Shown piece after piece: positions 20,393-63,684 of a stretch of 64,000 bases of DNA (its first letter is position 1; each line of letters begins with the position of its first letter). A program made the translations under genes and the position numbers. Source of the stretch: Antedon mediterranea (taxonomy: Eukaryota > Animalia > Echinodermata); contig NC_092679.1 of the NCBI RefSeq assembly GCF_964355755.1, positions 22,737,432 to 22,801,431 on the forward strand, in the 5' to 3' direction. The notes under the pieces are model-generated. The model searched no databases, was not told the DNA's origin, and saw nothing but the letters and a program-made list of their open reading frames with translations.

Positions 20393-21586
20393 AAAGTACG
20401 CCAAACTTTACGTAGATTAATGCTTTCAATCATTATAACTTGATTAAATGGTCCAAAGTACAAAGTGAGTGTTTCTGACAAAATATTAAAAACAACGACG
20501 GTGGTTGTAAAAAAAGTGCCCAAATACCGTAGGCCTATTAGCTCCACTACACTGTTCGAATAATATGCAACTAAAATGAAAGATTGCCAAACGCATATGA
20601 CAAAACAACAATATCACAAAATCATAATTTGATCAAATTAGGTGTAAATACTAATTAATATTGTCAAAGTATACGAAAATTTTGAAATGTATTACCTAAG
20701 GTGATTTAACACTGGCTAATAATAGTAATAATAACCTCTCAAGGGACTAGTAGATCTATAGTTACTTCTGCTGGACAATAGTACAGAAAGCACTTTAGAG
20801 AGATTCATTACGTCTAATTACAACTTGTTACGCAGTGTCTTCCTACGCGTTAAGACTAGCGTGTGATCGAATAAACGCCGCAGTCAATTAGGCTCCGCTA
20901 GAGTTAGAGCAATACCAAATAAAATGTAAACATAGAGAGTCCCATGTGCTTTATTTTATACTACAATTATAAGATGTCCAAAAACATCACCCGACTATAA
21001 TGATGTGAATCCAAACATTTGTTTTGATATTCAGTATTTTATTTACGGCACACTTGTAAACAATACAAAATATTTTTTAATATAATATAATAATTAAACA
21101 TACACTAATCTTGCAAGAAGACATACTTGTTACGCAAGACCCGCCCTAAACGAAAAAAAAAAAATAATAATGCAGGGTAGGGTTTTGGTTACAGTTAGGA
21201 GGTTATTAAAAAGCCAGTTGTTGATCGATAGAGGGCAGAATTCATATTTTTCTTTATAATATTTTTTTCTTCAAATTTATTTTTTGTAGTAAGAGTAAAC
21301 TGCAATTTTTATATACCCTTCCAAATGCTTTTTCAGCACGACTTATACAATTACATGTGTTTTATTTTTTTAACACGTTATTACAGTTAGTCGTTTCCAA
21401 AGTTTGATAGGGTTAAAATAAAGAGGGCGTTCGTGAGCCTTGAATCTCGAGCGAACAGGTTGTAGGTCAAAGTTAACGTTATTAATCCTCACATGAGTCG
21501 TTTAGTCGGTCACACGTCTCGTGAAGGACAGGGCTGAGCCTAACAATAAACTGTTGCAACTTAGAGAGATGAATTGAAAAACAAAT

Positions 21587-42359: not shown

Positions 42360-43112
42360 ATATTGAATAAACATACTATAAACATTTCATGAACATGTCA
42401 TAACAATAACATGAACATCCAGTTTTATAACATAACATGAACATGTCATGAACATAACATGAACATACAGTATCAAGAACATTATATGAGCATACCAAGA
42501 ACATAACATGATGATACCATGGACATAATGAGTGAGTGGCCGAGCGGTTAAGACAGTGGAACCGTAATCACGTAGCCATAACATCGGCAGGGGTTCGAGG
42601 CTCACTCACTCCATGGTTCTGGTGGTAGAACGAGTCTTCTCGGATAAGGACTATAAACCGTAGGTCCAGTGTACACAACTTGCTCGTGTGCACTTTAAAG
42701 AACCTAGTACATCTTTCGAGACGAGTAGGGGGTTACCCCGGTGTATTAGTACATCACAGCCACTGATCACCAACTGGGCCCTCTGGGAGATCAGTCTTTG
42801 ACTGAAGAGGTCACCCAGTATAAAGATAAAACAAACAAACAAATAACATCCATGCATAATATGAATATATTGTGAACATACCAGAAAGATACCATGAACA
42901 TACCAAGAACATACCAAGAACATAACATGAGCATACCAAGAACATAAAATGAGCATACCAAGAACATAACATGATCATACCATGGACATAACATCCATGC
43001 ATAATATGAATATACTGTGAACATACCAGGAATATACTGTACCATGAACATAACATGAGCATAACAAGAACATAACATGAGCATACCAAGAACATAACAT
43101 GAGCATACCAAG
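42360..43112. repeat. Degenerate (CATACCAAGAACATAACATGAG)n simple repeat interrupted by a SINE
   Basis: Repeated AACAT/GAGCATACCAAG modules on both sides of the SINE. Confidence 0.85.
42529..42843 (+). mobile_element. tRNA-derived SINE with Deu/Nin-like central domain and (CAAA)n tail
   Basis: A box TGGCCGAGCGGTTAAG, B box GGTTCGAGGC, centre TCGGATAAGGACTATAAACCGTAGGTCC...TTAAAGAACC...TTCGAGACGAGTAGGGG..CCCCGGTGT. The empty-site sequence GGACATAACATCC survives in the repeat near 42984. Confidence 0.85.
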
Positions 43113-43124
43113 AAAATAATAATA

Positions 43125-46100
43125 TTTTTCGATAAAACTGGTTACTATAGCGCAATTGACATGCGCAGAACCCATTATTCGTCTCTGCGCCTGTTTATTA
43201 TGCTATAGTAACCATTTATATAAAAAAATAAAAGGGTCGAAAATTGGTCATTTTTCGAAAATTTCCCTGTACTATAGTACAGGCATTTTTTCCAAAAAAT
43301 GGCAAATTTTCGACCTTTTTATTTTTCGATAAAACTGGTTACTATAGCACAATTGACATGCGCAGAACCCATTATTCGACTCTGCGCATGTTTATTATGC
43401 TATAGTAACCATTTATGTCAAAAGTGGTTACTATAGCGCAATTGACATGCACAGAACCCATTATTCGTCTCTGCGCATGTTTATTATGCTATAGTAACCA
43501 TTTATATCAAAAAATAAAAGGGTCGAAAATCGGTCATTTTTCGAAAATTTCCCTGTACTATAGTACAGGAATTTTTTCCAAAAATGGCAAATTTTCGACC
43601 TTTTTATTTTTCGATAAAACTGGTTACTATAGCACAATTGACATGCGCAGAACCCATTATTCGACTCTGCGCATTTTTATTATGCTATAGTAACCATTTA
43701 TATCAAAAAATAAAAGGGTCGAAAATCGGTCATTTTTCGAAAATTTCCCTGTACTATAGTACAGGGATTTTTTTCCAAAAATGGAAGATTTTCGACCTTT
43801 TTATTTTTCGATAAAACTGGTTACTATAGCACAATTGACATGCGCAGAACCCATTATTCGACTCTGCGCATGTTTATTATGCTATAGTAACCATTTATGT
43901 CAAAAGTGGTTACTATAGCGCAATTGACATGCGCAGAACCCATTATTCGTCTCTGCGCCTGTTTATTATGCTATAGTAACCACTTATATCAAAAAATAAA
44001 AGGGTCGAAAATTGGTCATTTTTCGAAAATTTCCCTGTACTATAGTACAGGCATTTTTTCCAAAAAATGGCAAATTTTCGACCTTTTTATTTTTCGATAA
44101 AACTGGTTACTATAGCACAATTGACATGCGCAGAACCCATTATTCGACTCTGCGCATGTTTATTATGCTACAGTAACCATTTATGTCAAAAGTGGTTACT
44201 ATAACGCAATTGACATGTGCAGAACCCATTATTCGTCTCTGCGCATGTTTATTGTGCTATAGTAACCATTTATATCAAAAAATAAAAAGGTCGAAAATCG
44301 GTCATTTTTCGAAATTTCCCTATACTAAAGTACAGAGATTTTTTTCCAAAAATGGCAAATTTTCGACCTTTTTATTTTTCGATAAAACTGGTTACTATAG
44401 CACAATTGACATGCGCAGAACCCATTATTCGACTGTGCGCATGTTTATTATGCTATACAGTAACCATTTATGTCAAAAGTGGTTACTATAGCGCAATTGA
44501 CATGCGCAGAACCCATTATTCGACTCTCCGCATGTTTATTATGCTATAGTAACCATTTATATCAAAAAATAAAAGGGTCGAAAATCGGTCATTTTTCGAA
44601 AATTTCCCTGTACTATAGTACAGGGATTTTTTCAAAAAATGGAAAATTTTCGACCTTTTTATTTTTCGATAAAACTGGTTACTATAGCACAATTGACATG
44701 CGCAGAACCCATTATTCGACTCTGCGCATGTTTATTATGCTATAGTAACCATTTATGTCAAAAGTGGTTACTATAGCGCAATTGACATGCGCAGAACCCA
44801 TTATTCGTCTCTGCGCCTGTTTATTATGCTATAGTAACCATTTATATAAAAAAATAAAAGGGTCGAAAATTGGTCATTTTTCGAAAATTTCCCTGTACTA
44901 TAGTACAGGCATTTTTTCCAAAAAATGGCAAATTTTCGACCTTTTTATTTTTCGATAAAACTGGTTACTATAGCACAATTGACATGCGCAGAACCCATTA
45001 TTCGACTCTGCGCATGTTTATTATGCTATAGTAACCATTTATGTCAAAAGTGGTTACTATAGCGCAATTGACATGCACAGAACCCATTATTCGTCTCTGC
45101 GCATGTTTATTATGCTATAGTAACCATTTATATCAAAAAATAAAAGGGTCGAAAATCGGTCATTTTTCGAAAATTTCCCTGTACTATAATAGTACAGGAA
45201 TTTTTTCCAAAAATGGCAAATTTTCGACCTTTTTATTTTTCGATAAAACTGGTTACTATAGCACAATTGACATGCGCAGAACCCATTATTCGACTCTGCG
45301 CATTTTTATTATGCTATAGTAACCATTTATATCAAAAAATAAAAGGGTCGAAAATCGGTCATTTTTCGAAAATTTCCCTGTACTATAGTACAGGGATTTT
45401 TTCCAAAAATGGAAAATTTTCGACCTTTTTATTTTTCGATAAAACTGGTTACTATAGCACAATTGACATGCGCAGAACCCATTATTCGACTCTGCGCATG
45501 TTTATTATGCTATAGTAACCATTTATGTCAAAAGTGGTTACTATAGCGCAATTGACATGCGCAGAACCCATTATTCGTCTCTGCGCCTGTTTATTATGCT
45601 ATAGTAACCACTTATATCAAAAAATTAAAGGGTCGAAAATTGGTCATTTTTCGAAAATTTCCCTGTACTATAGTACAGGCATTTTTTCCAAAAAATGGCA
45701 AATTTTCGACCTTTTTATTTTTCGATAAAACTGGTTACTATAGCACAATTGACATGCGCAGAACCCATTATTCGACTCTGCGCATGTTTATTATGCTATA
45801 GTAACCATTTATGTCAAAAGTGGTTACTATAGCGCAATTGACATGCGCAGAACCCATTATTCGTCTCTGCGCCTGTTTATTATGCTATAGTAACCACTTA
45901 TATCAAAAAATTAAAGGGTCGAAAATTGGTCATTTTTCGAAAATTTCCCTGTACTATAGTACAGGCATTTTTTCCAAAAAATGGCAAATTTTCGACCTTT
46001 TTATTTTTTGATAAAACTGGTTACTATAGCACAATTGACATGCGCAGAACCCATTATTCGACTCTGCGCATTTTTATTATGCTATAGTAACCATTTATAT

Positions 46101-46925
46101 CAAAAAATAAAAGGGTCGAAAATTGGTCATTTTTCGAAAATTTCCCTGTACTATAGTACAGGCATTTTTTCCAAAAAATGGCAAATTTTCGACCTTTTTA
46201 TTTTTCGATAAAACTGGTTACTATAGCACAATTGACATGCGCAGAACCCATTATTCGACTCTGCGCATGTTTATTATGCTATAGTAACCATTTATGTCAA
46301 AAGTGGTTACTATAGCGCAATTGACATGCGCAGAACCCATTATTCGTATCTGCGCATGTTTATTGTGCTATAGTAACCATTTATATCAAAAAATAAAAGG
46401 GTCGAAAATCGGTCATTTTTCGAAAATTTCCCTGTACTATAGTACATGAGTTTTTACCCAAAAATGGCAAATTTTCGACCTTTTTATTTTTCGATAAAAC
46501 TGGTTACTATAGCACAATTGACATGCGCAGAACCCATTATTCGACTCTGCGCATGTTTATTATGCTATAGTAACCATTTATGTTAAAACTGGTTACTATA
46601 GCACAATTGACATGCGCAGAACCCATTATTCGACTCTGCGCATGTTTATTATGCTATAGTAACCATTTATGTCAAAAGTGGTTACAAAAGCACAATTGAC
46701 ATGCGCAGAACCCATTTTGCGTCTCTGCGCATGTTTATTATGACTATAAGATGATGAATGATCATATTATACAGCAATAATATCGCATAAAAATTGATTT
46801 TTAAAAACATGATATTTTGGCCAGTTTTCGAAAAAATCCCTGTACTATAATAGTACAGGGATTTTTTCCACAAATGTCAAATTTCGACCCTGTTATTTTT
46901 TCGACTTAACTGGTTTCTATGGCAC
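43125..46925. repeat. Satellite of two palindromic modules; 286-bp and ~197-bp monomers
   Basis: Module A GGTTACTATAGC..ACATGCGCAGA..TCTGCGCATGT..GCTATAGTAACC; module B AAAATAAAAGGGTCGAAAAT..CCCTGTACTATAGTACAGGG..ATTTTCGACCTTTTTATTTT. Confidence 0.97.
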
Positions 46926-47240
46926 TATAAGATGATGAATGATCATATACAGCAATAATATCACATAAAAATTGATTTTTAAAAACATGATATTTTGGCC
47001 ATTTTCCGATCTTCATCTAAAGAAAACAGCTGATGCTTGTAATTTCCAAACATTATGTAAAATAGCTCTTTAATTCAAGTCAAATACTGAATGAAAAGAA
47101 AAAAAAATTAAAGAAAACATATAGGAATATTTGGCGTTTTCTGTGGTAGTCTACTTGTACTTCCTCTTACACGGAATGAAAAAATAAAAAGAAAAGACAA
47201 AAAAAAAAGAAAAAATGATAATGGCGTTTTCTGTGGTAGT

Positions 47241-48513
47241 CTATGTACTCCCTCTATAAGTTGGATGACAGTTAAAATCCACCAGTTTGATTAGATGTTC
47301 CCATGCTCGCTCATACACTTGTACTGTACAAGTCAAATCCTGTTTAAAAAAATAGGATCACATTTATTGTCTTAAGTCATGTCTACACTATCAAACTCTA
47401 TGTGACAAAAGAATGATGATGATGCCATATCAGTTATATATTTGGGCATGTCACTCCCATTTTTGGCATGTCAGTCCCATATGTGGGCACATCACACTAA
47501 TTTTGTCGAACTAGTTTGATAGTGTAGACAGATCTTTAAAGGAGATCCTATGGTATGAAGATTTCATACCATATATTATTTACATGAAATGGCCTAGAAT
47601 TGTCCAGTAAATACCGTATAAGGTAGAAGGTGAACCTACATGGTTGAGGGCACTCACACAATCAAAGCAACATTGTACTTGTACTGTATCAGGTTCTTAT
47701 TTAAGAAGGAAAAGCTCTTGTATCTTTTCTTTTTTAGGCTATTAGTTTGGGCACGTACCCGCTTTAACTTACCATGGCTGCAGCTCGTGGTCCAGTCAAT
47801 AGTTTACACTTTTGAACGTTTAGATTACTTAATTTTCCAGTGTTTAACTTGCATACAGTCGGGCTCAGCTCAATAGTTAAAAAGTAATTAATCCCAGCAA
47901 CAACCTAGACATTGAAGCATAACAAAAGTATTGAAATTACATTAAAAGCGATTTCATTACCACTATTCACAAATCAATTTGACATGCATAATTCCAGAAT
48001 AGTCTACTTTAAAAAAGAACCAAGTAATATTGTTTGTGGCCTCGCATCGTTTCTTTACAGGCCGTAGGCTTACAGGTTTATGTGGTTAAAGATTAATATT
48101 TATTCATAGTATTTCTGATTCTAAACTCTGTCTACACTATCAAACTTTATTTGAAAAAAAAAACCATGATGTGCCAGACATAACATCAAAGAACTGTTAC
48201 GAGTTCCTATCTTGGTATCGTCTCTTTACCTCACTAAAGTAAAGAGTCTCAAAACTCCCCTTTGTAGGCATATAAAGTTGTTTGGCCTCAAAATAACTCT
48301 CTTTACCTGTGTAGCAGCCGAGATGATGTTGGTGCACCTCATTGCATATAGCGAGTTACTTTTTGCGTTTATTTGCTCAGTAGCAAACCTCGAAATTCTT
48401 CTAATCAAATCAGACTGATTAGGATTAGACACAGTTTCTCTTCCGCCCATCATAGTAAAATTACCAAGGCAAATAAAATAAAATAACAACAATAAAACCA
48501 AAGTTTTAGTCAT
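47241..48513 (-). CDS. Secreted cystatin (type-2-like, 145 aa); exons 48513-48307, 47904-47773, 47339-47241
   Basis: Signal peptide, N-terminal GG, Q|VVAG across a phase-0 intron, INYFL, four Cys after the QxVxG motif, VYERAW at the PW loop position. Confidence 0.92.
47375..47536. mobile_element. MITE with GTCTACACTATCAAACT TIRs (Harbinger-like); partial copies near 9590-9662, 28620, 48128 and 62232-62345
   Basis: GTCTACACTATCAAACT...AGTTTGATAGTGTAGAC inverted termini with TAA/TTA flanks; recurs in the window. Confidence 0.7.
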
Positions 48514-49220
48514 GTTTCTCGCTATTTTGATAGGCCTACTGGACGTGATCAATATAGGCTACTTAATGAACGAAAACAAACAAGTGTGTTTAATTACATT
48601 GATTGGTTTACTACACTACCGCATAGGTACTGCAATTTGTTGTTTTTTTTTAATGAATGTTTAAGTTATAAAATAACAATTTTGTTTCAAATACATAACG
48701 CTCCATAAAATTGAATGCTACTATTTTATGTTATAATGTTACTAATCAAGAGTATTTGTAAAATGATTTGAATTAAATATTTAAAAAAAATCATAATGGA
48801 CGAGTCTAATGATTAATAATTATGTAGAAGTTATAATATTATTAGGATATATTTTTTTAATAGAGGGAGGCAAACATATTATTATTCTTGTTTCTAAACT
48901 GGTCATCGTTGTTGAAAAAAAATATAGGCGAATTTGACTGATTTGTTTACTTTGTACTTATTGTCACGTGAACATTTTGAACACTGTTACCACTTCTCAG
49001 CTCGCAACAGCGAGGAACTTGAAGAGCTAATCCAAGTCAACTGTTATTTAAGACAAAAGAGTAGAGTAAGACATAGATAGCAGATTAACAAAGATTATAT
49101 ATCTTTCAACAATGCAAAATATAAAACGTCAATAATGGTATTTAACCAATGTTTATATATCCATATTAAAGTAAACTCAACTCAATTAAGATTGACTATT
49201 AAGATGTTGTTCTAATTGCT

Positions 49221-49786
49221 GGTGTTTTGCCGAACGCCACATCTCCGACGGACAACAGATCGACAGACTATTTTCCGACCGGACCTATAGCCGACCGGAT
49301 ATTCCACACCGGACATTTCACCGATCGGTCCTTTCAGATCATTCTCTCGATAGGACATTTCACCGACAACCATTTAACTGACAGAAAAATGATCAAAAGA
49401 CAATCATTCGACAGACAAAAAGTTCAAAAGTTGAAAAAACATGTATTTATTCAATGGCATATTATTGTACAGTATAACATAGGTGTGTATTTAAATGAAC
49501 ATGGTAATAAACCATCATTTGGGGTCTTCTCTAGAAGAAATCAAGTTTCTTGTCTCGAGAAAGACCCCAGAACAATTATAACAAAAATTATAAAAAAATA
49601 AAAATAGATAAATGATATATAGATTGACATACACATACATATAAACCTTGCCATATAATTTCCGTATTTCAACAGTAAAATACATGTATTTCATTTTTTA
49701 TTATATAAATTATAAATATATCACGTGCCATAAAGGTTTCGTTGAAGAACGGGTCCTGTCGGTGAACGGCATTTCGCAAAACGTCC
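49221..49786. mobile_element. Probable MITE with imperfect TIRs and 15-bp subterminal repeats
   Basis: GGTGTTTTGCCGAACGCC versus reverse complement GGACGTTTTGCGAAATGCC; repeated ACCGGACATTTCACCGA-like units; not seen in the paralogous spacer near 61500. Confidence 0.5.
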
Positions 49787-49873
49787 GAATACCTAATTCT
49801 TATTGACAAACAGCAGAGATGACAACAATAATATCATAATTAATATCTTAACATCAGTATTACTTATCAGTAG

Positions 49874-50807
49874 TGTAATATAATGTTGGGTTGTTGAGGT
49901 ACTAATGAAGGACTCTGACTCGCTTGACTGTCGTAACACATATATTATTTATTCAGTATAATACTTCAGTACAATATACAACTATAAGTATAGATAAGGA
50001 ACGGACATTCAATGATGCTGTCGGTGAGGTGTGAAGTGTGTAGGTCTGCTGTGAGGTGTGTGCTCCGTGAGGTGGCTGTAAGGTGTGTGCTCCGTGAGGT
50101 GTCTGTAAGGTGTGTCTGGGCCCTTCTGAAACTTTGGAGTATATTGGCTCAGTTCATTTGCATAATGTCATTACATCATCTGTGAGGGTAACGATTGGTC
50201 CTAAGTTGATCCAGGGGTGTTTAAGTGGGAGTGATTGATCTTATCTGGGGAGGTTACAATGATGAATTGGCCCTGTCAAATCTCTGCTTAAAACTGTCAG
50301 AATCTAATTGTTTTACGATGGGAACGGTCGCAAAGTTAAGCTAAGTGTTTTCTTTAGGGATTCTATTATAAACTAAATGGTCATTAAAACATCTGGACAA
50401 ACTCTCCTTTGGACTTTCTGGGTCAAGTTTGTGAACCTATTTGAATTCCGATACAAAGGTCAATTTCTTAAATATAAAAGTATATCTTTATATCACATCC
50501 CTCTGTTTCCCTTTTTTTTTTCTAATCTATTTAACATATAAAAATGGTTATAATAGTGGCATGCAAAATTAAAGTTATAAAAAAGAAAAAAAAACATTAT
50601 ACATATATGCAAAAATTGAGTTAGCCAAAACCATTGACTCTGAAGTGTAACCTTATCACTTTCACTCTCTCTCTTCTCTCTCTTAAAAAAATTAAAATCA
50701 AAAATGAATTTGGTATAAAATTCGCGTAAATCAAACATAAATCAGTTCAAATAAAAATACAAAACTTTAAAAAAATAGTATGTTACATTGAACATACATC
50801 AAATTCG
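49874..50807 (-). repeat. Inverted LTR (624 bp) plus PPT and 310 bp of element 3'UTR
   Basis: Reverse complement of 50808-51431 (2 mismatches by eye) and of 58570-58875. Confidence 0.97.
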
Positions 50808-51431
50808 TGTGATATAAAGATATACTTTTATATTTAAGAAATTGACCTTTGTATCGGAATTCAAATAGGTTCACAAACTTGACCCAGAAAGTCCAAAGGA
50901 GAGTTTGTCCAGATGTTTTAATGACCATTTAGTTTATAATAGAATCCCTAAAGAAAACACTTAGCTTAACTTTGCGACCGTTCCCATCGTAAAACAATTA
51001 GATTCTGACAGTTTTAAGCAGAGATTTGACAGGGCCAATTCATCATTGTAACCTCCCCAGATAAGATCAATCACTCCCACTTAAACACCCCTGGATCAAC
51101 TTAGGACCAATCGTTACCCTCACAGATGATGTAATGACATTATGCAAATGAACTGAGCCAATATACTCCCAAGTTTCAGAAGGGCCCAGACACACCTTAC
51201 AGACACCTCACGGAGCACACACCTTACAGCCACCTCACGGAGCACACACCTCACAGCAGACCTACACACTTCACACCTCACCGACAGCATCATTGAATGT
51301 CCGTTCCTTATCTATACTTATAGTTGTATATTGTACTGAAGTATTATACTGAATAAATAATATATGTGTTACGACAGTCAAGCGAGTCAGAGTCCTTCAT
51401 TAGTACCTCAACAACACAACATTATATTACA
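50808..51431 (+). repeat. 5' LTR (624 bp, TG...CA)
   Basis: TGTGATAT...ATATTACA termini, AATAAA near 51352, followed directly by the PBS. Confidence 0.97.
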
Positions 51432-51444
51432 TGGTGGAAGACCC
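51432..51444 (+). promoter_or_regulatory. Primer-binding site TGGTGGAAGACCC
   Basis: TGG immediately after the LTR. TGGTGGA resembles the complement of a tRNA-Ala 3' end; tRNA identity uncertain. Confidence 0.75.
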
Positions 51445-51649
51445 AAATTTCATAAGGAACGGAGTGAGCAAACAAAAATTTACAAGAAAATTAACAAAAA
51501 GACAAGAAGCAGAAAATAAAAGCAAGAGATAATTTCTTGAAACAGAACAAGAGACGAAGACGAAGAAAACCAGCCACCAGTCAGATATTTGTTTGATAGG
51601 AGAAAACCGAAAATTACACGAAGACAAGCTGAAATTTATATTTTAATCA

Positions 51650-51890
51650 GACAAGCAGAATTTTTTTTTTTTCAAGTAAGCATTTTAACTGGAACGAGAC
51701 AAGCAGATTTTTTTTCAAGTAAGCATTTTAACTGGAACGAGACAAGCAGAATTTTTTCAAGTAAGCATTTTAACTGGATCAAGAAAAGCAGAATTTTTTC
51801 CAAGTAAGCAATTTAACTGGATCGAGACAAGCAGAATTTTTTTTCTCAAATTGGCATTTTAACTGGATCGAGACAAGCAGAATTTTTAAA
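51650..51890. repeat. ~45-bp tandem repeats in the element 5' leader
   Basis: GACAAGCAGAATTTTTTTCAAGTAAGCATTTTAACTGGA repeated 5-6 times. Confidence 0.85.
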
Positions 51891-52300
51891 TTTCGTATAA
51901 CCATTGGATGAAGACAAAAAAAAAATAATCAAAGACACAAGAAGAATCAAAACGGAAAACGGAAGCAAGCGGACAAGAACTGTTTCGTTTGGACACTTTT
52001 AACTTCACGCCGGGGTTTTTCGAACGTTTTTTGAACATTTACCTTTTTTTTAATTTTGAACTTTGACCATTTTGAACATTGATGAACACTTTTCGCATTT
52101 CTTGAATTCGTTGTTTGAAAATTTGAACGTTGTTGAACACTCTTAGCATTATCTCCTTTAATTCGTTTTAATTGGATCCGAAGCATTTGGGGTAAGTCAG
52201 AACCATTTTGATTTTGATTTGTAACCTTGATTGAAAAGTGAGAGTTTACATATACACTAAATTGTTTTTGATATTTGATTAATAATTAATATTATAAAGT

Positions 52301-53266
52301 ATGGTCGACGTTGTTGATAACGAAGTAATTTTAAATGAGCCCGTCAATCCTCATCCCGTGCCCCACCTAAGACAAACCGATTTCCTTCCCAAAAGATATG
52401 ACGGTTCCATAACCGATCACGACCAATGTAGTGCACACTACTTATCGTTTACCGACTACCTTGAAGCCCACACTTTAGAAAACCCTGTAAACAATGCCCA
52501 ATTAATTAATGTAATAAGTATTTTTAAACGTAGCCTTCAGGGCCAAGCTAGACTCTGGATTGAGGGAAAGCAGTTCGATTCACTAGAATCCTTAAAAACC
52601 CAATTCATCAACAGGTTTAGTAAAAACAAATCAATCTATGCGCACATAAGAGAATACGATTCAATTACATACACCACTGGCGACAACGCCGAAAAGCACT
52701 TAACCAAAATCAAACAAGCCGCAGACAGAATTGGATACGCTGACCAGCAGATAAAGAATAAATTTATTTCGACCCTTCCACCAAAATGTAGAGCAGCTGT
52801 AGCCATGTCCACCCCAATCGATGCCACTATTGAAAATATTGTAAATAGCACACAAAATTACCTTGACCTTTCCGTAGATGATGCCACACGGGAAGTTTCA
52901 TTTAATATCAATAAGGAAACAGATAGGCCTAATAGTCTCGAATCGCTCCAACATGAGATAAATTCTCTCAAGTTAGACATGGCCACAACAAAACGATCCC
53001 TTAATGATGATACTCGACGCTCGCGTTCCCCCACCCGAAATTATATCCCAAGACGAAACCGAAGCCCAAGCCCATACAAACCCCGATTCCAGACCCCACC
53101 GACCCCAAGATATAGACAACTTCCCCCAACCTGTTATTACTGCGGGAAACCAGGCCACATAGCAAGGCACTGCCGACAACAAAACCGCTCTTACGGAAAC
53201 TATCCCCCGCCATACCCATACCAACAGTCAAACAATTACTACCCTAGCCACCAGCAGGATTTTTAA
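52301..53266 (+). CDS. gag: Gag (321 aa) with CCHC zinc knuckle
   Basis: FKRSLQGQARLW capsid-like motif, RS-rich segment, CYYCGKPGHIARHC. Confidence 0.93.
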   Translation: MVDVVDNEVILNEPVNPHPVPHLRQTDFLPKRYDGSITDHDQCSAHYLSFTDYLEAHTLENPVNNAQLINVISIFKRSLQGQARLWIEGKQFDSLESLKTQFINRFSKNKSIYAHIREYDSITYTTGDNAEKHLTKIKQAADRIGYADQQIKNKFISTLPPKCRAAVAMSTPIDATIENIVNSTQNYLDLSVDDATREVSFNINKETDRPNSLESLQHEINSLKLDMATTKRSLNDDTRRSRSPTRNYIPRRNRSPSPYKPRFQTPPTPRYRQLPPTCYYCGKPGHIARHCRQQNRSYGNYPPPYPYQQSNNYYPSHQQDF

Positions 53267-56200
53267 AAAGGGGACTAGATGCCGCCTATAATCTGGCCCC
53301 CCATACTAAATACGACAATTTTAAGGCAAAATACTTAGGGAATTCAGATAATATTGATTTGTTACTTAACGACAGAAATTACGTTAAAGGAAATTTACCA
53401 GATGGTAGAAATGTTTTAACTTTATTTGACAGTGGTTCAACTAGAACTATAATCTCACAATCGTACGTTAATTCCTCACTTTATTTATCGCGTTTAAAGC
53501 CAGTTAAAGTGAACACAACTAAATTTAGATTAGGTAACGGTGACTTCTTATATGCCAACCACTTAGTGCAATTCGAATTATTTATCCAAGGACACAAATT
53601 TAAAATTTCAGCATTAATCGTTAAAAATTTGACAGGTATTGACCTGATACTTGGAACCGAAACATTGTCTGAACTCGACGGTACTTTAAATTTTAAGGAA
53701 AACACATTTCGCATTAGACCAAAGGTTTTTAGCTTTCGTCCAGTACACAAGATTTTTCTTAAACCCGGTGATACTAAAACAGTTAAATTAAAAGGAAGGG
53801 TTCCCGCCTTTGTACGCAATTCCGATGTTGTTCTACATGCAACGACCCATATTTCAAAACTTTGTCCATCAGACATGTTAGTAAAATTACATAGAGGAGA
53901 AACCAACATTGATATCACTAACAACACAAACAGAAACGTATCTCTAAATACACATCAACCTATCGCGAGCCTTCACTTAACCAACCTTGTAACAGTTACT
54001 AACGACCTACCAATTGATAGAATAAAGTTGACCAATGACAACGCAAACAAGTACCCACATTTAGAACGTACAGACCCATTGCTAACTTTAACCGAGGAAG
54101 AAATAATTAGAAAACAAGTTGATTTAACAGACAGCGTTTTAACACATAGAGAAAAAGAAGATTTGTATAAAATATTACAACAAAACAGAAACGCATTTTC
54201 ACTTTATGGTGAACTATCTAGCTGCCCAAACTTCAAAGCTGACATACACCTCTCTAACGATGAACCATTTTTTATTCGCCCATACTTCGCGACAGACAAA
54301 GACAAACATGTTATTGAGGCCGAATTGAACAAATTAGTCAAATTAGGAATCTTAGCAGTAGGACACCAATCGTATACTTCCCCTGTCCTTCTTGTTTCAA
54401 AGAAAAATTCAAAAGATAAAAGAGTTGTCACAGACTTTCGCTATCTAAATTCCAGGATAAAACGTATTAATCACCCATTCCCATTATTGGCCGAAACTTT
54501 GAAAACAATAGGTAACGCTAATGCACAGATTCTTAGCGTAATTGATTTGAAATCAGCGTTCCACTGTGTACCATTAGCCGAACATGCCCAACAATATACA
54601 GGTATAGCTTCATATCATGGTGGAAAACATTATTATTATAAGAGATTAGCACAAGGATTAAACGTTTCACCAGGTATATTTCAAGCAAAGATTGACGAAA
54701 TTTTAAATGAAATCCCAAATTCTAGAGAATTCTGTATCGCCCATCACGATGATATTATTTTATTTAGCCAAGACAAATTTGCTCATAAGCAGCACCTTGT
54801 TTCCGTTTTACAAGCCCTACAATTAAATGGTTTTAGAATTTGTCCAAAGAAATGTAAGTTATTCAAGAATAAAGTGCAATATATGGGACACACCATCCTG
54901 ATTAATTCTTCAGGACACGCATGTATCACACCATTAGGCGACAGGTGTGCAGCTATCCGAAATTTGCCAGTCCCACGAACCCATAAAGAAACTAAACGAT
55001 TTATTGGTGCAGTAAATTATGTATCCCATTTTTTCCCTCAAATACAATCAATTTTACGTCCGTTACACACACTCGCAAGCAAACGCCGAAAATTTTGTTG
55101 GTCTACTGAACACCAGAAAGCATTTGACGAAATTAAACAATTAATGGTTAAACCACCAACTCTTCAAATGCCTAGAAAAGAAGGTAGATTTACGCTATAT
55201 AGCGACACTTCAAGAACCGCAACAGGTTCATATTTAACACAAACAGTAAACGGTAAAGAACACATAATAGGTTATTATTCCAAAATCTTACCACAAGCCT
55301 GTCAACGATATAGCGTCACAGAATTAGAGTTATTTGGACTTTACATTAACGTTTCAGCATTTCGACATTTACTAAAGGGTTGCGAATTTGATGCATTCGT
55401 AGACCACTCAGCAATTGTACAAATTTGGAATTCAAAAGATCAGCCATGTACACCCCGTTTACAGAAACTAATATTACGATTGTCCGGATACATTTTCCAA
55501 ATTGGTTATAAGAAAGGAACTGAATTAGTTTTAGCGGATTTTCTCTCCCGAGCCCCTCGTGATGACGATTCCGAAATTGATCAAGTTGTACCCATTGCAT
55601 TTAATATTACAGAGACTGAATCTCTTAACCCGATTACAAACACATCTACTAGCAGACCAGTAACAAGGTCATACGCCAAGAAAATGGGAATAAATATACC
55701 TGACCTACATAAACCCAAACCAGTACAAACGCCCGTCATTAATCAAAACCCAGTGACAACAAACACGCGACCTACACCTCAACCTTCCACTACACCACAG
55801 ATAATCACGAGACAACAAACAAACGCACATCGATCACCGCCTATCATAACGCCACCTATCGTAACACCACCCCCAATACGTAATGTAAACATTCGACAAC
55901 CTCCAGAGGAACGACTAGTAGACAAAAATAAGCAAAGCAAAGACACTACACATCGAAATGTACCAGTTGAATTGTATACATCGCCCAAACCACTAGTACC
56001 CAACATAACTGAATTTAAGTCAGCACACATCCCAAAACAACAAGACTTAGATAGATTAATGGATGTTATTCAAAGAAAGATAATTAGAGATTATAACCTC
56101 CCAGTAGATGTTAAACAATTACGTGTTGAACAAGAAACTTCACCATTTTTTAAGCCAGTTTACGATTATTTAGTTCATGATATCCTTCCAGCTGATAAGA

Positions 56201-57972
56201 AAGCAGCTCGTGCAGTTCAGAATAAGTCAGAGCAGTACATATTGTGCAACGGTTTACTATTCCGTTTATTTTTCCAAGATAAAGGTGGAGAATTTGTATT
56301 GCAATTAGCTGTTCCTGAAAACTTAGCCGAGACCGTTATTTCTCAGTATCACGACAATTTGTTAAGTAGCCACCAAGGTACGATGCGTACTTACCTTACT
56401 ATTAGGAAATTATTTTACATGCCCCTTATGTTCGAGAAAGTCAACAATTATACCCAAGCGTGTCTTAGATGTCAACAATTTCGTCCCAAAACCGATAAAT
56501 TACGTCCTTTACACGATCGAGTACCAGCAACTTACCGTCCCTTTCATACACTCAGTCTAGATTTTAAGAGTATGCCAACTTCACCTTCAGGTTTTAAACA
56601 TATTATGGTAGTATGTGATGAGATAACTAGATTTTTGATTTGTGTTCCTTTGAAATCCATTGATGCCGAAACAATTTGTGAAGCACTAATTCAAAAGGTC
56701 ATCAGTATTTTTGGACCCCCATCTCGTCTTATTTCAGATGCAGCAACCTCCCTTACAGGAAAATTATTAACACTATTATGTAACACCCTTAATATTGATA
56801 GGAAAATCATCAGCGTCCACAATCACGGTAGTTTACAAGTTGAACGTCATATCCGCACTGTATCGGACCTGTTAAAGGTCAACCTTAACCAATTCGGAAC
56901 AGATTGGGTTAGATTTGTATCAACAACATGTTATGCTTATAATTCTTTCTCATCCCCACATCTAGGAAACCACTCCCCTTACGAATTAGTTTTTGGCCGC
57001 CAACCTCCAAGTTTGACCTCATTAGCATTTAACCCTATTTCAGGATTGTCTCATTCCTATGAAGAATACTTTGAACACCTCAAGAAGAAATTTCAAAACA
57101 TTTCACAGACAACGCTACAATTACAGCGAACACAACAAAACGTCCAAAACTCAAAAATTTCCCAACGCTTAGAAAAAAGTCCAATTTACTCAGTAGGACA
57201 ACTCGTATATTTATACAAGCCAACATCATCATCACTAACGGCAAATTCAAAGAAAATCGCCGCAGAATGGGTCGGACCATTAGTAATTCATGAAGTACTA
57301 GACAGAACACACTACATCCTAGCGACGATTAAAGGAGAAATACTTCGCGACGTATTCAATTATAACAGACTGAAACCCTGTTTTATGAGAACACCCAAAG
57401 AACGCAAAAATTTTACACATCTACAAAAACTTAAACAATTGTTGAATGAACCCACCGATGATAATAACGAGAAAATCCAAAACACCATTAATGTAGTAAA
57501 TGACGAAATCAATGTTGAATTTGTAGACGAACATGATAGGACACCAGCCCAATTGCAATCAGATACCCTTACACATCCAACAAAGATAGAACCCCTTAAC
57601 TTGCAACCTTACATTGACTGTGTAGAGAACAACATGGGATTAGCAGCCCCATTCCAAATGAAAGAAGAACAAATCAAGGAACAAACTAATCTAATTATGA
57701 CAGCACCTAATGATTCAATTATGACATTAAACCGAGGTAGATTTAAAGCAGGACATTTCCAAGTTTTAGTTTCGTATTCTAAACCGACTTCAGCCAAACG
57801 CAACACCAATAAAACAAAACACGAATCTAATGATCGCAAATTTTGGTGGAATATTGACAGATATAACGATACAGATAAATTGATTAAAGAGATCATTAAA
57901 GATAAACAGATACCGATAAGTGGATCGCCAAAACGATTCATAAAACGTTTGTATAATGCAACGAATTACTGA
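53248..57972 (+). CDS. pol: Pol polyprotein PR-RT-RNaseH-IN, uninterrupted, in the -1 frame relative to gag
   Basis: LFDSGS protease; RVVTDFRYLN, IDLKSAF, RLAQGL, AHHDDII RT; YSDTS..YSVTELE..VDH RNase H; H-x6-H..CLRC, SLDF, ISDAA, VERHIRT and WVGPLVI integrase. Gypsy domain order. Frame open from 53248. Confidence 0.97.
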   Translation, partial: PPAGFLKRGLDAAYNLAPHTKYDNFKAKYLGNSDNIDLLLNDRNYVKGNLPDGRNVLTLFDSGSTRTIISQSYVNSSLYLSRLKPVKVNTTKFRLGNGDFLYANHLVQFELFIQGHKFKISALIVKNLTGIDLILGTETLSELDGTLNFKENTFRIRPKVFSFRPVHKIFLKPGDTKTVKLKGRVPAFVRNSDVVLHATTHISKLCPSDMLVKLHRGETNIDITNNTNRNVSLNTHQPIASLHLTNLVTVTNDLPIDRIKLTNDNANKYPHLERTDPLLTLTEEEIIRKQVDLTDSVLTHREKEDLYKILQQNRNAFSLYGELSSCPNFKADIHLSNDEPFFIRPYFATDKDKHVIEAELNKLVKLGILAVGHQSYTSPVLLVSKKNSKDKRVVTDFRYLNSRIKRINHPFPLLAETLKTIGNANAQILSVIDLKSAFHCVPLAEHAQQYTGIASYHGGKHYYYKRLAQGLNVSPGIFQAKIDEILNEIPNSREFCIAHHDDIILFSQDKFAHKQHLVSVLQALQLNGFRICPKKCKLFKNKVQYMGHTILINSSGHACITPLGDRCAAIRNLPVPRTHKETKRFIGAVNYVSHFFPQIQSILRPLHTLASKRRKFCWSTEHQKAFDEIKQLMVKPPTLQMPRKEGRFTLYSDTSRTATGSYLTQTVNGKEHIIGYYSKILPQACQRYSVTELELFGLYINVSAFRHLLKGCEFDAFVDHSAIVQIWNSKDQPCTPRLQKLILRLSGYIFQIGYKKGTELVLADFLSRAPRDDDSEIDQVVPIAFNITETESLNPITNTSTSRPVTRSYAKKMGINIPDLHKPKPVQTPVINQNPVTTNTRPTPQPSTTPQIITRQQTNAHRSPPIITPPIVTPPPIRNVNIRQPPEERLVDKNKQSKDTTHRNVPVELYTSPKPLVPNITEFKSAHIPKQQDLDRLMDVIQRKIIRDYNLPVDVKQLRVEQETSPFFKPVYDYLVHDILPADKKAARAVQNKSEQYILCNGLLFRLFFQDKGGEFVLQLAVPENLAETVISQYHDNLLSSHQGTMRTYLTIRKLFYMPLMFEKVNNYTQACLRCQQFRPKTDKLRPLHDRVPATYRPFHTLSLDFKSMPTSPSGFKHIMVVCDEITRFLICVPLKSIDAETICEALIQKVISIFGPPSRLISDAATSLTGKLLTLLCNTLNIDRKIISVHNHGSLQVERHIRTVSDLLKVNLNQFGTDWVRFVSTTCYAYNSFSSPHLGNHSPYELVFGRQPPSLTSLAFNPISGLSHSYEEYFEHLKKKFQNISQTTLQLQRTQQNVQNSKISQRLEKSPIYSVGQLVYLYKPTSSSLTANSKKIAAEWVGPLVIHEVLDRTHYILATIKGEILRDVFNYNRLKPCFMRTPKERKNFTHLQKLKQLLNEPTDDNNEKIQNTINVVNDEINVEFVDEHDRTPAQLQSDTLTHPTKIEPLNLQPYIDCVENNMGLAAPFQMKEEQIKEQTNLIMTAPNDSIMTLNRGRFKAGHFQVLVSYSKPTSAKRNTNKTKHESNDRKFWWNIDRYNDTDKLIKEIIKDKQIPISGSPKRFIKRLYNATNY

Positions 57973-58848
57973 TTTAAATTTTTTTTGCAAGATTATTTTT
58001 AAATTACGACATTTGCTAAATTAATGATAGCATAGTCTACGTATTTGATGAGATTTGTTTAGTAATGATGTGATTTCAGTTAAAAGAGAATTGAATTTAT
58101 GTTTAAGTATTGATTTTGTAACGAATTTTTTGATAAAGATTAATTTTGAATTTTGATGATCGATATATTGAGATATTGAAAAGAACGACAATCATTTTGT
58201 AACAAATATTTTGTTTAACCTTTGAGTCGTTAATCTCAAGCATTAATTAATTGATATACAATAATAGGAGATTTTCTTAGTACTTTTAATTGTAATTTTG
58301 TTGACATTGAGTACAAAAGTCGAATTTGTCGATTGATTGAAATCGTAATTACCTGTGAATATAAATGCTTAAATCGATAAAGTTGTGACGATAATGATAT
58401 ATTGTGGATAAGTTTGTGTCAACGGGACACACACATTTGTTTCTTTTAAAGTTTTAAGTGATTAAGTTTGATATTTGATTTTAGGCTAATCAGCCACAGT
58501 TTCTTGAATTTTACGTTTTAATTTGATGATTTATGTTTGAAGACCATTAGAACGCGATGAGTTGTCGCACGATTTGATGTATGTTCAATGTAACATACTA
58601 TTTTTAAGTTTTGTATTTTTATTTGAACTGATTTATGTTTGATTTACGCGAATTTTATACCAAATTCATTTTTAATTTCATTTTTTTTAAGAGAGAGAAG
58701 AGAGAGAGTGAAAGTGATAAGGTTACACTTCAGAGTCGATGGTTTTGGCTAACTCAATTTTTGCATATATGTATAATGTTTTTTTTCTTTTATATAACTT
58801 TAATTTTGCATGCCACTATTATAACCATTTTTATATGTTAAATAGATT

Positions 58849-58875
58849 AGAAAAAAAAAAAGGGAAACAGAGGGA
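58849..58875 (+). promoter_or_regulatory. Polypurine tract
   Basis: AG(A)nGGGAAACAGAGGGA abutting the 3' LTR. Confidence 0.9.
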
Positions 58876-59474
58876 TGTGATATAAAGATATACTTTTATA
58901 TTTAAGAAATTGACCTTTGTATCGGAATTTAAATAGGTTCACAAACTTGACCCAGAAAGTCCAAAGGAGAGTTTGTCCAGATGTTTTAATGACCATTTAG
59001 TTTATAATAGAATCCCTAAAGAAAACACTTAGCTTAACTTTGCGACCGTTCCCATCGTAAAACAATTAGATAATGACAGTTTTAAGCAGAGATTTGACAG
59101 TGTCATCCATCACAGAAATACCTTATTATACCGTTAATCACTCCCACTTAAACACCCCTGGATCAACTTAGGACCAATCGTTACCCTCACAGATGATGTA
59201 ATGACATTATGCAAATGAACTGAGCCAATATACTCCCAAGTTTCAGAAGGGCCCAGACACACCTTACAGCCACCTCACGGAGCACACACCTCACAGCAGA
59301 CTAACACACTTCACACCTCACCGACAGCATCATTGATCCTCCGCGTTCCTTATATATATACTTATAGTTGTATATTGTACTGAAGTATTATACTGAATAA
59401 ACAATATATGTGTTACGACAGTCAAGCGAGTCAGAGTCTTCATTAGTACCTCAACAACCCAACACTATATTACA
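58876..59474 (+). repeat. 3' LTR (599 bp), a distinct sequence variant
   Basis: TGTGATAT...ATATTACA; differs from the other two LTRs by a ~35-bp replaced block, a 27-bp deletion and several substitutions. Confidence 0.97.
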
Positions 59475-60598
59475 GTAGTACTAGTAGAATCGCATTTGAA
59501 ATTTTTGATTTTTTTTGAAGCCTCATCTGCCAACCATCCTCTCACCCACAGTTCCACATTGCACGTTTTTATCTGCAATGGAAAATGAAATTAAGAATTT
59601 ATTTAAACAGCTGACATCTCGTAAAACAAATGCAAATTATAGAAGAGAATTTTGGGGATTTTTCAGACAACTAAGATGGTAATATATTATTAACAAGTAT
59701 TTTTGAAAATAATAGTATTGATACATTACGCCCATGTTCCAATATGTGCTACGCAATTTAAAATATATGGAAATCACTACAAAAGAGGTGCTCATTATAC
59801 ATACATCGGCTGAACACTCCTCGTTATTGGTATAACATGCTTCAAAGGCAAATCGGTAAAGAGACCCTTCTACAACCTGGAAAAAATGACAAATATTTCA
59901 AGTTATGTGTGTAAAAGTCTACAAATTATTAGTTATTAATACTAGTCGTTACACAATGAACGGTACTACCTAAGTTAGTGAATTTGTGTTATCTTAAGAT
60001 GGCGACGTAGTGTATATACGACACAAACGTAAGTTCTTTTTTTTTTATATATTCTACTGCCAATGTATTGACAACATTTCTGCTGTAAATAAAAGTTCAT
60101 GAAATGAATTCATTTAGTTTTATCGTATATTCTATTTATATTGTTATTGTGTTGTCTTAAGGTAACCTAAACTTGTAAATGCTCAGCCTAGACCAAAGTA
60201 AAAACTGTTATGTTTAGAATTAAACATGGGAACCGTTCTTACAACACAACAAATATTATAATGTATTTTGTATACTATGTAGTTTAGATTAGCTGCGCAC
60301 AATCGTTATTTCCGCCGAATTACGGGCACTTAGGCCTACTATTGAGTTACATTGTCGAGGCTTGCAGGCCTCCGATTTATTAACATCTTAGGCCTACCTG
60401 TTCAGTGACAGAGGTAATCTTGGAAACTACGTATTTGTCAGAAGGTTCATTTTTATTGATTTCTTCAATTACAAACGCCATCTTGTTTTTAATATCAGTG
60501 TTAATTTCAATCTCCTGTATTCCTCCAGTCATTAGTGTGGCTCTAACAGTAGCCACCCAAAACGGATTCACCAAAAACAGTAAAAACAAACTTGCCAT
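59465..60598 (-). CDS. Secreted cystatin-like protein; exons 60598-60398, 59876-59805, 59572-59465; stop codon now supplied by the LTR
   Basis: Signal peptide, MTGG, Q|VVEG, CNVELWVRGW; ends FKCDSTSTT-VI* with VI* read from the LTR minus strand. Confidence 0.88.
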
Positions 60599-61554
60599 TT
60601 TTCTCTCTCAATAATTTTGAACGAAATGCACTGTCAAAATACGAAACGGACTGATTCATGCACTTATTATTCTGATATTGTAGCCTTTGTTAAGCAAATT
60701 ATAGTGCTTGTTATTGGTGAATGTCAAACCGCTTACTAAGTCAAAAAGATGAAGTTAAAATAGTATATATGGTTGACTAAAGAAGATTAGGTTGTATAGA
60801 ATTTTAGATATTTATGACAATGATAAGAAAAGTACATACACGACTCTAGTGACAAAAAAGGACAACAAATTATTAATTTTAAGAAACTTTTGAGAACAGA
60901 AAGAGTTTATGGCTCACGCAATGACAAATTAAGAGGTCAAACTGGATATGCCATCACAGGTTTTCACTGCCGATATCAACGTAGGCTATAACTTAGATAG
61001 GCCTTCTAAATAACGGAATTCAAAGCTAAAATACGTAACGTATGCAAACCGGGTTATCTCACGTACGACAAGAAAATTCACTTCAAACTTAGACTTGCTG
61101 TATTTATTGTCTTTTTTATGTTATATTATTATTGTGAAGAGCTAATACAAGTCAACTGACAAAAGAGTAGAGTAAGACAAAGATAGCAGATCAACGAGGA
61201 TTATCTATCTTTCAACAATGGTTGGAGGTACACACCTAATTGGTGGCAGTGGCTTAGGCTGCTTTTATGCTTTCCTGGCAGCTAGTGACTATGATTTTAT
61301 GTTTTCATCTTGCGTCGTGTTTGTTTAATTTGTTGATTTGTATTATATTTTGTAAAATGTATCTTTTGCCTGAATAAATAATAATAAAATAATGCGAAAT
61401 AATAAATAAAACAATTTAAACCATTACAATATCAAACAACATTATATTTAATCAATATTTTATACATTCATATCCAACTCAACTTGATAATTCATTTTTG
61501 TGACTGATTTCCACATTAAACATTGTTGTAATTGTTATCGACAAAGATGACAAC

Positions 61555-61795
61555 GGCAGTGACGACAACGACATTGACGACAACGACGGTGACGACAACG
61601 ACGGTGACGACAACGACGGTGACGACAACGACGGTGACGACAATGGCAGCGACGACGACGACAGTGACGACAACGACAGTGACGACAACGACGGTGACGA
61701 CAACGACGGTGACGACAACGACGGTGACGACAACGACGGTGACGACAATGGCAGCGACGACGACGACAGTGACGACAACGACAGTGACGACAACA
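61555..61795. repeat. 15-bp (GACGACAACGACGGT)n microsatellite-like expansion
   Basis: About 16 units. Confidence 0.95.
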
Positions 61796-61853
61796 ATAAC
61801 ATAATCATTATAGATACTATCATTCCATATTTTACATGTAAATAGAGTTATTT

Positions 61854-63083
61854 TCAGTAGGATTGCAGCGGTCCGAACTTTTTAACGATCCTCCTAAAAG
61901 CCTCATCTGCCAACCATTCTCTCCCCCACAACTCCACATTGCACGTTTTTATCTGCAATACAAAATAAGTTAATAAATTGTATGTAAAACATAATTAAAC
62001 AGCTGGTAATAATATATCATGCAAGAACAAATGTTGCATTTAATTATGAGAGAAAAGGATGTGGAAGATTGTCTATGAAGACAAACGGCCATATTAACAA
62101 GTGTCTTGGCAATTAATAATAGTGTTGATATATATGATCAATGCGTTGCAGCATCGTGAAAGGGTCGTAATATTGACATTTTTCTGTATGTAACATCTTT
62201 GAAAACTCTAGAATTACATAAAAACCTGATTTCTACACTATCAAACTTTATGTGACAAACATGTGATGTGCTCATATGTTTAAACGATGATGTCATATCA
62301 CCAGCATATTTTGGCATATCACATACTTTAGTTTGATAGTCCAGATATGACGTATGCATTTCAATCGACGACCAAGTGCTCATATACTTACATCGTCACC
62401 ATCGGAACACATTTTGCTGCTGGTATAACAAGCTTGGAAGACAAAACTGTAAAGAGATCCAGATGTAACCTGGAAAAATAATTGTTAAAATAATGATGAT
62501 TTCCATATTGTATATCTATGTTTTACCACATAAACAAATTCGTCTGACAGAAAAACGAACTTCCGAGTGCTTTAACATAAATATATTCTTTTTAATAACA
62601 AAAACTTCCAACAAAAATCCGTACACTTACTGACACTTTTTGATAGAGTTGTTGTAGATTTTGTATAAAGGTTTATATAAATTGTATATAGAGAATTTTT
62701 ATAAATGCTTATAGATATTTTGTAGAATTTCTAAAGAGATTTTATAGATTTTAAAAATATATTTTCTTTTCTATTTATATACAGTTCTAAATGGTTTTCT
62801 ATATACAATATATATAGATAAAATTGATAGACTCATTGTATAGACTTCTATAGAAACTGTATACAAGTGGACGTGGTCTAACGTGCCTCGTTACTAACTT
62901 ACCTGTTCAGTGACCGAGGTAATCTTGGAAAGCATGTACTTCTCTGGCGATTCGTTTTGATTGATTGTTTCAATTGCAAATCTCATCTTGTTTACAATGT
63001 CACCGTTGATTTCATTCTTTGCTGTGACAGAAGCCACCAAAAAACGAATCTACCAAAAACAGTAACAGCAACAACTTGGCCAT
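61854..63083 (-). pseudogene. Cystatin paralog with frameshifts; exons 63083-62903, 62469-62392, 61952-61854
   Basis: Exon 1 is 181 nt (+1 in a T6 run, stop at codon 24) and lacks the N-terminal GG segment; Q|VTSG; exon 3 shifts frame before the last Cys (TTC-GGAC-CGC-TGC versus paralog TTC-AAA-TGC). Confidence 0.75.
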
Positions 63084-63684
63084 TTTCTCTCTCAATTGAA
63101 CGGAATGTCTACAGTCCGCTGGACATCACACGACACCAGGTTTTATATACACGAGTAACAATATAATCCATTTATTTATTTTTGTTTCCTAAATAATTTT
63201 ATTATATTGCGGTGTCATCACAAATATTATTATAGATAATTAACAATATATATATATATAAATTCTATTTTTTTTTGTTAATTAAGTAAATTTGTACTAT
63301 TAGTATTGATTGTAAAAACAGTTTACCATGGTCACTCACTTTATATAAATTTTAATAAACTATTGTTAATAACTAAATTAACCGTATCTGGAATCAAGGA
63401 CAATAAACAATTAACAATAAATATTCAAATTACCTTCTCTTTTAATTAAATTTGTATTGTACGATAAACACACCTCGGTTTCATTATCATTAATTTATTG
63501 GCTGATTCAGTTTTACGTGCCGAAAATTATTTTGATCCACGATCGATGTTTTTACGTTTCCTTTGAATAATACGGGTCAAACATTGGATATATCTGTCTT
63601 TTTTTGCATAACTTATATCATCCATTGGCCTTGGTCGTCAAGCGGGTCGTGTTTAAATATGAACATCCTTGATTATGTATAACA

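Follow-up and report, generated by a model that had tools for sequence, protein, structure and literature searches.

Insertions with three long terminal repeats (LTRs) and one flanking target-site duplication (TSD) have been described as products of template switching, in which two templates were joined during reverse transcription and entered the genome by one integration (Sabot and Schulman 2007, PMC1950507; Cassandra, PMC4079214). In these complexes an internal LTR lies between the polypurine tract (PPT) and the primer-binding site (PBS), each complex has two cores, and its outer LTRs form a near-identical pair (PMC1950507). The inversion circles formed by autointegration of Ty1, HIV-1 and Arabidopsis SISYPHUS have an LTR end joined to their own interior in inverted orientation, with an inverted stretch between two LTRs, and are circular dead ends that use both LTR ends (PMC7197481, PMC2644782). 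In aberrant proviruses of HIV-1 and avian sarcoma/leukosis virus (ASLV), a viral 3′ end primed on short homology and viral sequence was appended in either orientation, the second end being repaired by the host with long duplications or deletions (PMC5041404). Unequal LTRs are reported in HIV, mainly as deletions (PMC9278108). Here we describe a Ty3/Gypsy element with two U5 ends, inserted in the last exon of a likely cystatin gene within a 64-kb stretch of the genome of Antedon mediterranea (contig NC_092679.1, positions 22,737,432 to 22,801,431), hereafter the window.

The element shares with Ty3/Gypsy (Metaviridae-type) retrotransposons the TG...CA LTRs, PBS, PPT, CCHC gag, the order protease, reverse transcriptase (RT), RNase H and integrase, and a short duplication, but it differs from their ordinary copies by an inverted 934-bp arm, two U5 host junctions and unlike core LTRs. 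Like the template-switch complexes it has three LTRs and one flanking duplication; it has, however, one core, outer LTRs that are inverted and unlike, and no outer U3 end. In contrast to the inversion circles, only the U3 end lies inside, the element includes a third LTR, of another type, and the whole is integrated with a duplication. Its two junctions with the host are clean and carry a 4-base duplication, unlike those of the aberrant HIV-1 and ASLV proviruses. The available parts of the S. osmophilus preprint and of PMC12657518 make no mention of inverted products. We found no report of an integrated two-U5 retrotransposon in a literature search that was thin on subscription and older papers, and the structure may have been published before. 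On inverted LTRs in aberrant proviruses the search brought up a single paper, on a lentiviral vector.

Architecture of the composite element

Coordinates are positions in the window, and statements at the sequence level rest on the assembled sequence. The composite element measures 9601 bp (49874-59474) and is bracketed by two copies of GTAG. It consists of an inverted LTR1 with its PPT and 310 bp of 3′ untranslated region (3′UTR), which form the extra arm of 934 bp, followed by LTR2, PBS, gag, pol, PPT and LTR3. The parts are as follows, with the basis of each in brackets; A and B denote two sequence types, and ORF an open reading frame.

49870-49873, plus strand: GTAG, left copy of the 4-base TSD (sequence comparison)
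49874-50497, minus strand: LTR1, inverted, 624 bp, type A, U5 toward the host (622/624 identity with LTR2)
50498-50807, minus strand: inverted PPT and 3′UTR, 310 bp, type A (alignment to the native copy)
50807/50808, no strand: internal join of the inverted 3′UTR to the first U3 base of LTR2 (0 LTR-side bases lost or added)
50808-51431, plus strand: LTR2, the 5′ LTR of the core, 624 bp, type A (alignment)
51432-51449, plus strand: PBS-like stretch, beginning with TGG that abuts the CA of the LTR (18-base length assumed)
52301-53266, plus strand: gag ORF, open, with a CCHC zinc knuckle (ORF and domain search)
53248-57972, plus strand: pol ORF, -1 frame, open, 1574 codons (protease-RT-RNase H-integrase order)
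58563-58569, minus strand: native sequence immediately past the join point (first 2 bases, and 5 of 7, equal to the U3 start)
58570-58875, plus strand: native 3′UTR end and PPT, type B (alignment)
58876-59474, plus strand: LTR3, the 3′ LTR of the core, 599 bp, type B, U5 toward the host (alignment against LTR1 and LTR2)
59475-59478, plus strand: GTAG, right copy of the TSD (sequence comparison)

This structure, with its inverted arm and two U5 ends, was confirmed in the assembled sequence. A sequence-only reading of the window had proposed the same layout, and it was borne out part by part: both host-facing termini are U5 ends (...TATATTACA), no U3 end lies outside, and the U3 end of LTR2 meets the 3′UTR in opposite orientation with the join at the first U3 base. 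That reading had also held that removal of 49874-59478 restores the host exon; the host continuity is supported, but this span is not that of the element, which occupies 49874-59474 alone, the longer span adding one TSD copy. Its view that an aberrant intermediate integrated once, by way of two U5 ends, is supported by the exact termini, the 4-base duplication and the host continuity. Given the composition of the flanks, the 4-base match would arise by chance with a probability of 0.003-0.006. A 5-base target duplication was rejected, as it would consume one base of an LTR tip. DIRS elements, which have inverted LTRs, are not known to have a DDE integrase or a target duplication, and a DIRS-type origin was rejected since both are present here. 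Compared with an ordinary single-cycle insertion, the core LTRs are not identical and the host ends are not one U3 and one U5. Target duplications of LTR elements are generally of 4-6 bases (PMC8220671), and that of the present element has four. In the window there were no further pieces of this Gypsy family and no second copy of the U3-to-3′UTR junction, and the junction pattern gave 0 matches in viral contigs, a collection unlikely to contain the element.

The core is, by its sequence, an intact Ty3/Gypsy LTR retrotransposon with both ORFs open. The Pfam domains of Pol were RVP_2 (residues 58-153), RVT_1 (385-550), RNase H (618-748) and integrase (1022-1192), and this domain order, the TG...CA LTRs, the PBS and the PPT all correspond to a Ty3/Gypsy LTR retrotransposon. 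The best PDB match of the RT was Ty3-G Gag-Pol (E 8e-77), above pararetrovirus-type and retroviral enzymes. The catalytic motifs of Pol agree with those of 19 aligned relatives. At the RT active site (Pol residues 497-504) we found HHDD, where the usual motif is YxDD; because 18 of the 19 relatives carry HHDD too, damage to the RT was rejected and the motif is regarded as a trait of the clade. Among the 120 matches listed, the top-scoring named relatives of Pol come from the sea cucumber Holothuria leucospilota (62%), the sea urchin Diadema setosum, the limpet Patella caerulea and the ribbon worm Lineus longissimus, with identities of 51-63%, which would fit a host among the marine invertebrates, and this marine-invertebrate clade is about 30% identical to other Gypsy Pols. 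The window contains no tRNA gene. The stretch starting with TGG is a candidate PBS.

In metagenome contigs, an alignment query led to 12 related loci, from 14 of 174 candidates, and a single-protein query to none (0/123 candidates); there were also none in viral contigs (0/8) or prokaryote genomes (0/23). One of the 12 loci shows an LTR pair, without flanks. Exact look-up of gag and pol gave 0/3 matches. The 5′ leader carries about six copies of a 43-bp tandem repeat (51624-51925). Runs X1-X11, from three other organisms and an aquatic metagenome, contain 0.04-0.18 of the words of 49200-50900.

Two sequence types within one element

LTR1 and LTR2 are identical at 622 of 624 positions, with one private base each, whereas LTR3 differs from either of them by 22 substitutions and 8 gaps. 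The inverted and native 3′UTR exhibited 300 matches over 311 columns, with 5 substitutions and 4 gaps, the native copy being one base shorter beside the join. The substitutions that LTR1 and LTR2 have in common against LTR3 number 21, with 10 of the 21 clustered in 36 bases. Under equal rates the split of 2 against 21 has P = 7e-5, and were the differences due to age, the chance of finding the ORFs open would be below 1e-11 in a rough model. Ageing was rejected as their origin, and the differences of LTR3 are, judging from these comparisons, inherited and not accumulated by age.

For the read check, four of 15 runs, each with 65-75% of the words and all from one sample, were kept as contigs; these runs may be the source of the assembly itself. 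The comparison spanned 50779-51468, with 32 of 2413 pieces and 24 of 201 loose-end rows listed. The family is abundant and diverse in these contigs. The LTR3 alleles at 51297, 51301, 51358 and 51394 occur in other family contigs, and two loose ends among the rows listed are LTR3-like, which likewise speaks for inherited differences. The A at 51203 that LTR1 and LTR2 share makes up 0.6-1.3% of the summed contig depth (which is not a copy number) in all four runs, and since both carry this rare base they are not independent draws from the family. Position 51416 fits a picture of two templates less neatly: the allele listed for the family is G (about 60%), A stands in LTR2, and both LTR1 and LTR3 show C, absent from the alleles listed; the A in LTR2 may come from the family and need not be a new mutation. 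A 27-bp tandem duplication (51190-51216) that contains the rare A allele is present in LTR1 and LTR2 and absent from LTR3.

Because LTR3 variants recur in family contigs and both ORFs are open, we conclude that two different templates contributed, A having given LTR1, the inverted 3′UTR and LTR2, and B the native 3′UTR end and LTR3. An origin from a single molecule, by one-ended autointegration or fold-back, had been suggested from the sequence; it predicts three identical LTRs and two identical 3′UTRs, and is not supported, since LTR3 and the native 3′UTR differ.

The same pattern might have been built up after insertion, from a reverse A element with a second, opposite element nested in its 3′UTR, followed by deletion between LTR tips and conversion of LTR2 by LTR1. 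The tips TATATCACA and TATATTACA match at 8 of 9 bases, so that deletion from one tip to the other would produce a clean end next to the original duplication; the family is both abundant and diverse, and every step is of a known kind. Four events would be needed, however, among them a deletion of several kilobases with precise ends and the conversion of an LTR over its full length, in an element that looks young (open ORFs, 2 differences between LTR1 and LTR2), and the homology at the join would be due to chance. We consider this sequence of events quite improbable.

Origin of the internal join

Past the join, the native minus strand reads TGCGACA and the U3 start TGTGATA, alike in the first 2 bases and in 5 of 7 overall. 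A contig of run X12 matches through 50809 and then has the same native continuation. The combination of TG with a 5/7 match occurs at 7 of 895 positions of the 3′UTR minus strand and at 81 of 7436 of the whole internal region. Over the mismatched positions the product retains the LTR bases and not those of the 3′UTR, as expected if the LTR end served as primer. With the U3 end as primer, the exact border would be the end of the template and the full 5/7 match would be used. The role that the sequence-only reading gave to the likeness of TGCGAC and TGTGAT is supported, such homology being found at about 1% of sites.

We propose, with a probability of roughly 0.5, that the U3 end ran off its template and re-primed on the minus strand of a different, co-packaged genome, and that the product was integrated through two U5 ends. 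In this scheme RNAs A and B would have shared one particle, as the two sequence types suggest. Plus-strand strong-stop DNA from A would have paired with the PBS end of the minus strand of B, which would make LTR2 type A and LTR3 type B; the same pattern would result had LTR1 later converted LTR2. The minus strand of B would then be completed over LTR A, displacing the minus strand of A and ending in CA-3′ at the U3 border, as the standard pathway and the PBS flush with the LTR would lead one to expect. This CA-3′ end would pair with the single-stranded minus strand of A, 310 nt before U3, and 3′UTR, PPT and LTR A would be copied, with the minus strand of A as partner strand. Finally, the two free U5 ends would be inserted together with a 4-base stagger, presumably by the integrase. 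With two genomes the extra arm would have a partner strand; with a single molecule it would lack one. Priming of a viral 3′ end on short homology, with either viral strand copied, has been proposed for host polymerases (PMC5041404), and complexes from co-packaged RNAs were inserted in one step (PMC1950507).

A fold-back is another conceivable route. The growing minus strand of A would stall 310 nt past the PPT and prime on, or be ligated at, its own U3 border, copy LTR A and the PBS, and then transfer to genome B; identical LTR1 and LTR2, a type A inverted 3′UTR and a type B remainder would follow without added steps. Because the product keeps the LTR bases, however, TG alone can pair, and with 39 two-base and 4 three-base landing sites the exact U3 border would be hit about once in 43 and stays unexplained. 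In the predicted DNA fold the 3′ end is unpaired and the U3 tip lies within a small hairpin. Fold-back of the element on its own LTR, as first suggested, is very unlikely.

Several points weigh against the proposed run-off and re-priming. The second strand transfer is described as occurring within one minus strand, which makes the pairing of strong-stop DNA from A with B unusual (PMC6894440). The identity of LTR1 and LTR2 could come from conversion between close inverted repeats. Joining of the A minus strand to the start of LTR2 would require flap trimming and sealing, which we assume. As to the TSD length usual for the family, 0 of the 12 related loci carried both LTRs with flanks. The 7-base homology window was picked after the data had been seen, and the unbroken terminal match is of only 2 bases. 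In addition, CA precedes the cut on one strand of the host site, and A precedes it on both strands; with this A taken as given, the chance of the homology rises to 3%, and because the host site shares CA before the cut, an integrase target preference may supply part of it. Finally, no bridging contig was found among the pieces listed, 29 bases lying left of the join against a bridging rule of 31; with this shortfall and 32 of 2413 pieces listed, the missing bridge is uninformative.

Another possible origin of the join is by integrase itself, in which the U3 end would attack the 3′UTR of the same or a co-packaged copy in opposite orientation, and the remaining U5 ends would integrate; in a variant, U3 ends would be paired with U3 and U5 with U5. 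The exact U3 border is directly accounted for in this way: as in autointegration, the exact CA of an LTR end is linked to sequence of the interior that lies on the opposite strand (50807/50808). The left part of the element, with an inverted LTR, an inverted internal piece and an LTR, has the arrangement of an inversion circle, an autointegration product (PMC7197481, PMC2644782). In the host and the internal site alike, CA precedes the cut on one strand and a T comes after four bases, which is consistent with a shared integrase target preference. Yet both U5 ends join the host, and there are two sequence types and not one molecule. With ordinary DNA copies this route predicts that LTR2 equals LTR3, or that all LTRs are alike, whereas only LTR1 and LTR2 agree, and an extra step (intermolecular second-strand transfer, recombination or later conversion) is needed for the order A, A, B. 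It requires a double-stranded target and two integration reactions, and leaves the 5/7 homology to chance (about 1%, or 3% with the A preference). The HIV paper among these two, moreover, treats most autointegration as a concerted use of U3 and U5 that consumes both ends. We regard a join made by integrase as the main alternative, less likely than re-priming of the U3 end.

The lack of a bridging contig would also be expected of an assembly artefact, either a palindromic read chimera or a merger of haplotypes or family copies, and errors come easily with an inverted repeat of 624 bp that is near-perfect and belongs to an abundant family. Such an error would have to yield exact LTR termini, two copies of 4 bases that match, a host exon that ends in frame and flanks that follow the order of a paralogue. 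Besides, the inverted arm differs from the native 3′ end, and a private base is found in each of LTR1 and LTR2. We give an artefact a very slim chance.

Host gene and fate of the insertion

The host gene runs on the minus strand and has three exons, the last of which holds the element; its parts are the following.

60398-60598, minus strand: exon 1, ending in Q, with QVVEG spanning intron 1 (sequence reading)
59778-59876, minus strand: exon 2, donor at 59781 or 59778 (sequence reading)
59475-59572, minus strand: exon 3 up to the insertion (reading frame)
49860-49869, minus strand: displaced end of exon 3, coding for D, K and stop (frame phase)

The predicted protein has TGG, Q/VVEG across intron 1 and a WVRGW loop, which may correspond to the N-terminal G, QxVxG and C-terminal W loop of cystatins. 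In the Atlas comparison, cystatin clusters scored 0.80-0.86 and the first match was an unnamed cluster at 0.92; single exons had no Pfam or PDB match. From these motifs and the Atlas leads below 0.9, the gene is likely a cystatin. The left flank supplies D, K and stop in frame, and with the element present the frame reads V, I, stop within LTR3. Only two residues are thus altered at the end of the protein, and the exonic insertion may be tolerated for this reason. The flanks match a neighbouring paralogue (61135-61979) in roughly the same order, the right one over 83 nt at 88% and the left one over 29 nt at 83% and 95 nt at 84%.

The gene belongs to a tandem cluster of at least three cystatin-like genes on the minus strand (48304-48513, 59475-60598 and 61845-63084). 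Exon 1 of the last of these is frameshifted, through decay to a pseudogene or through an assembly error. Elsewhere in the window there is a long open frame with WD40 repeats (34225-35523, plus strand), and frames at 25886-26344 and 27882-28511 resemble exons of another host gene, with no Pfam match. A satellite-like array at 43090-46930 has units of 197/286 bp and many internal inverted repeats of 250-470 bp at 77-80%; an array at 37284-38495 has a period of 57, its copies being 97-99% alike. Further tandem arrays lie at 3033-7031 (about 343 bases), 19567-20462 (23 bases) and 61494-61823 (15 bases).

The genomic RNA of LTR elements begins in the R region of the 5′ LTR and ends in that of the 3′ LTR (PMC6894440). 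Because it would start inside LTR2 and omit the inverted arm, the two-U5 shape should not propagate, and the self-propagating architecture that the sequence-only reading had entertained is not supported. The core, if transcribed from LTR2, would yield ordinary two-LTR progeny without the arm. The element is most likely a one-off copying accident with a dead-end shape, and not a new kind of element.

It is rather improbable that run-off priming of the U3 end is a general route to two-U5 products and that such insertions act as silencers of their family. If they did, an intact element antisense in a cystatin-like 3′ end would cause host transcripts to carry antisense LTR sequence, and transcripts reading through to the poly(A) signal of LTR1 would form a hairpin RNA, its stem about 545 bp long, directed against an abundant family. 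The minus strand has 8 AATAAA sites before the own signal of LTR1 at 49948. Since read-through past these eight would be needed, a hairpin RNA appears less likely, and antisense LTR3 sequence in the host 3′ end would be the more likely outcome.

Provided that the join is real, this case from a natural animal-type genome shows a Gypsy integrase accepting two U5 ends, and the order A, A, B records the template of each part, an origin that identical co-packaged genomes would hide. It would then be rare genomic evidence for intermolecular second-strand transfer or end priming within one particle, and it tells more than most scars of this sort, as its core is intact and its two templates can be distinguished. 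The insertion breaks the assumption on which LTR-pair dating and annotation rest, as a young element would appear old (LTR2 against LTR3, about 3.6% substitutions), and it leaves a host gene with antisense LTR sequence and with an inverted repeat of 624 bp that is near-perfect.

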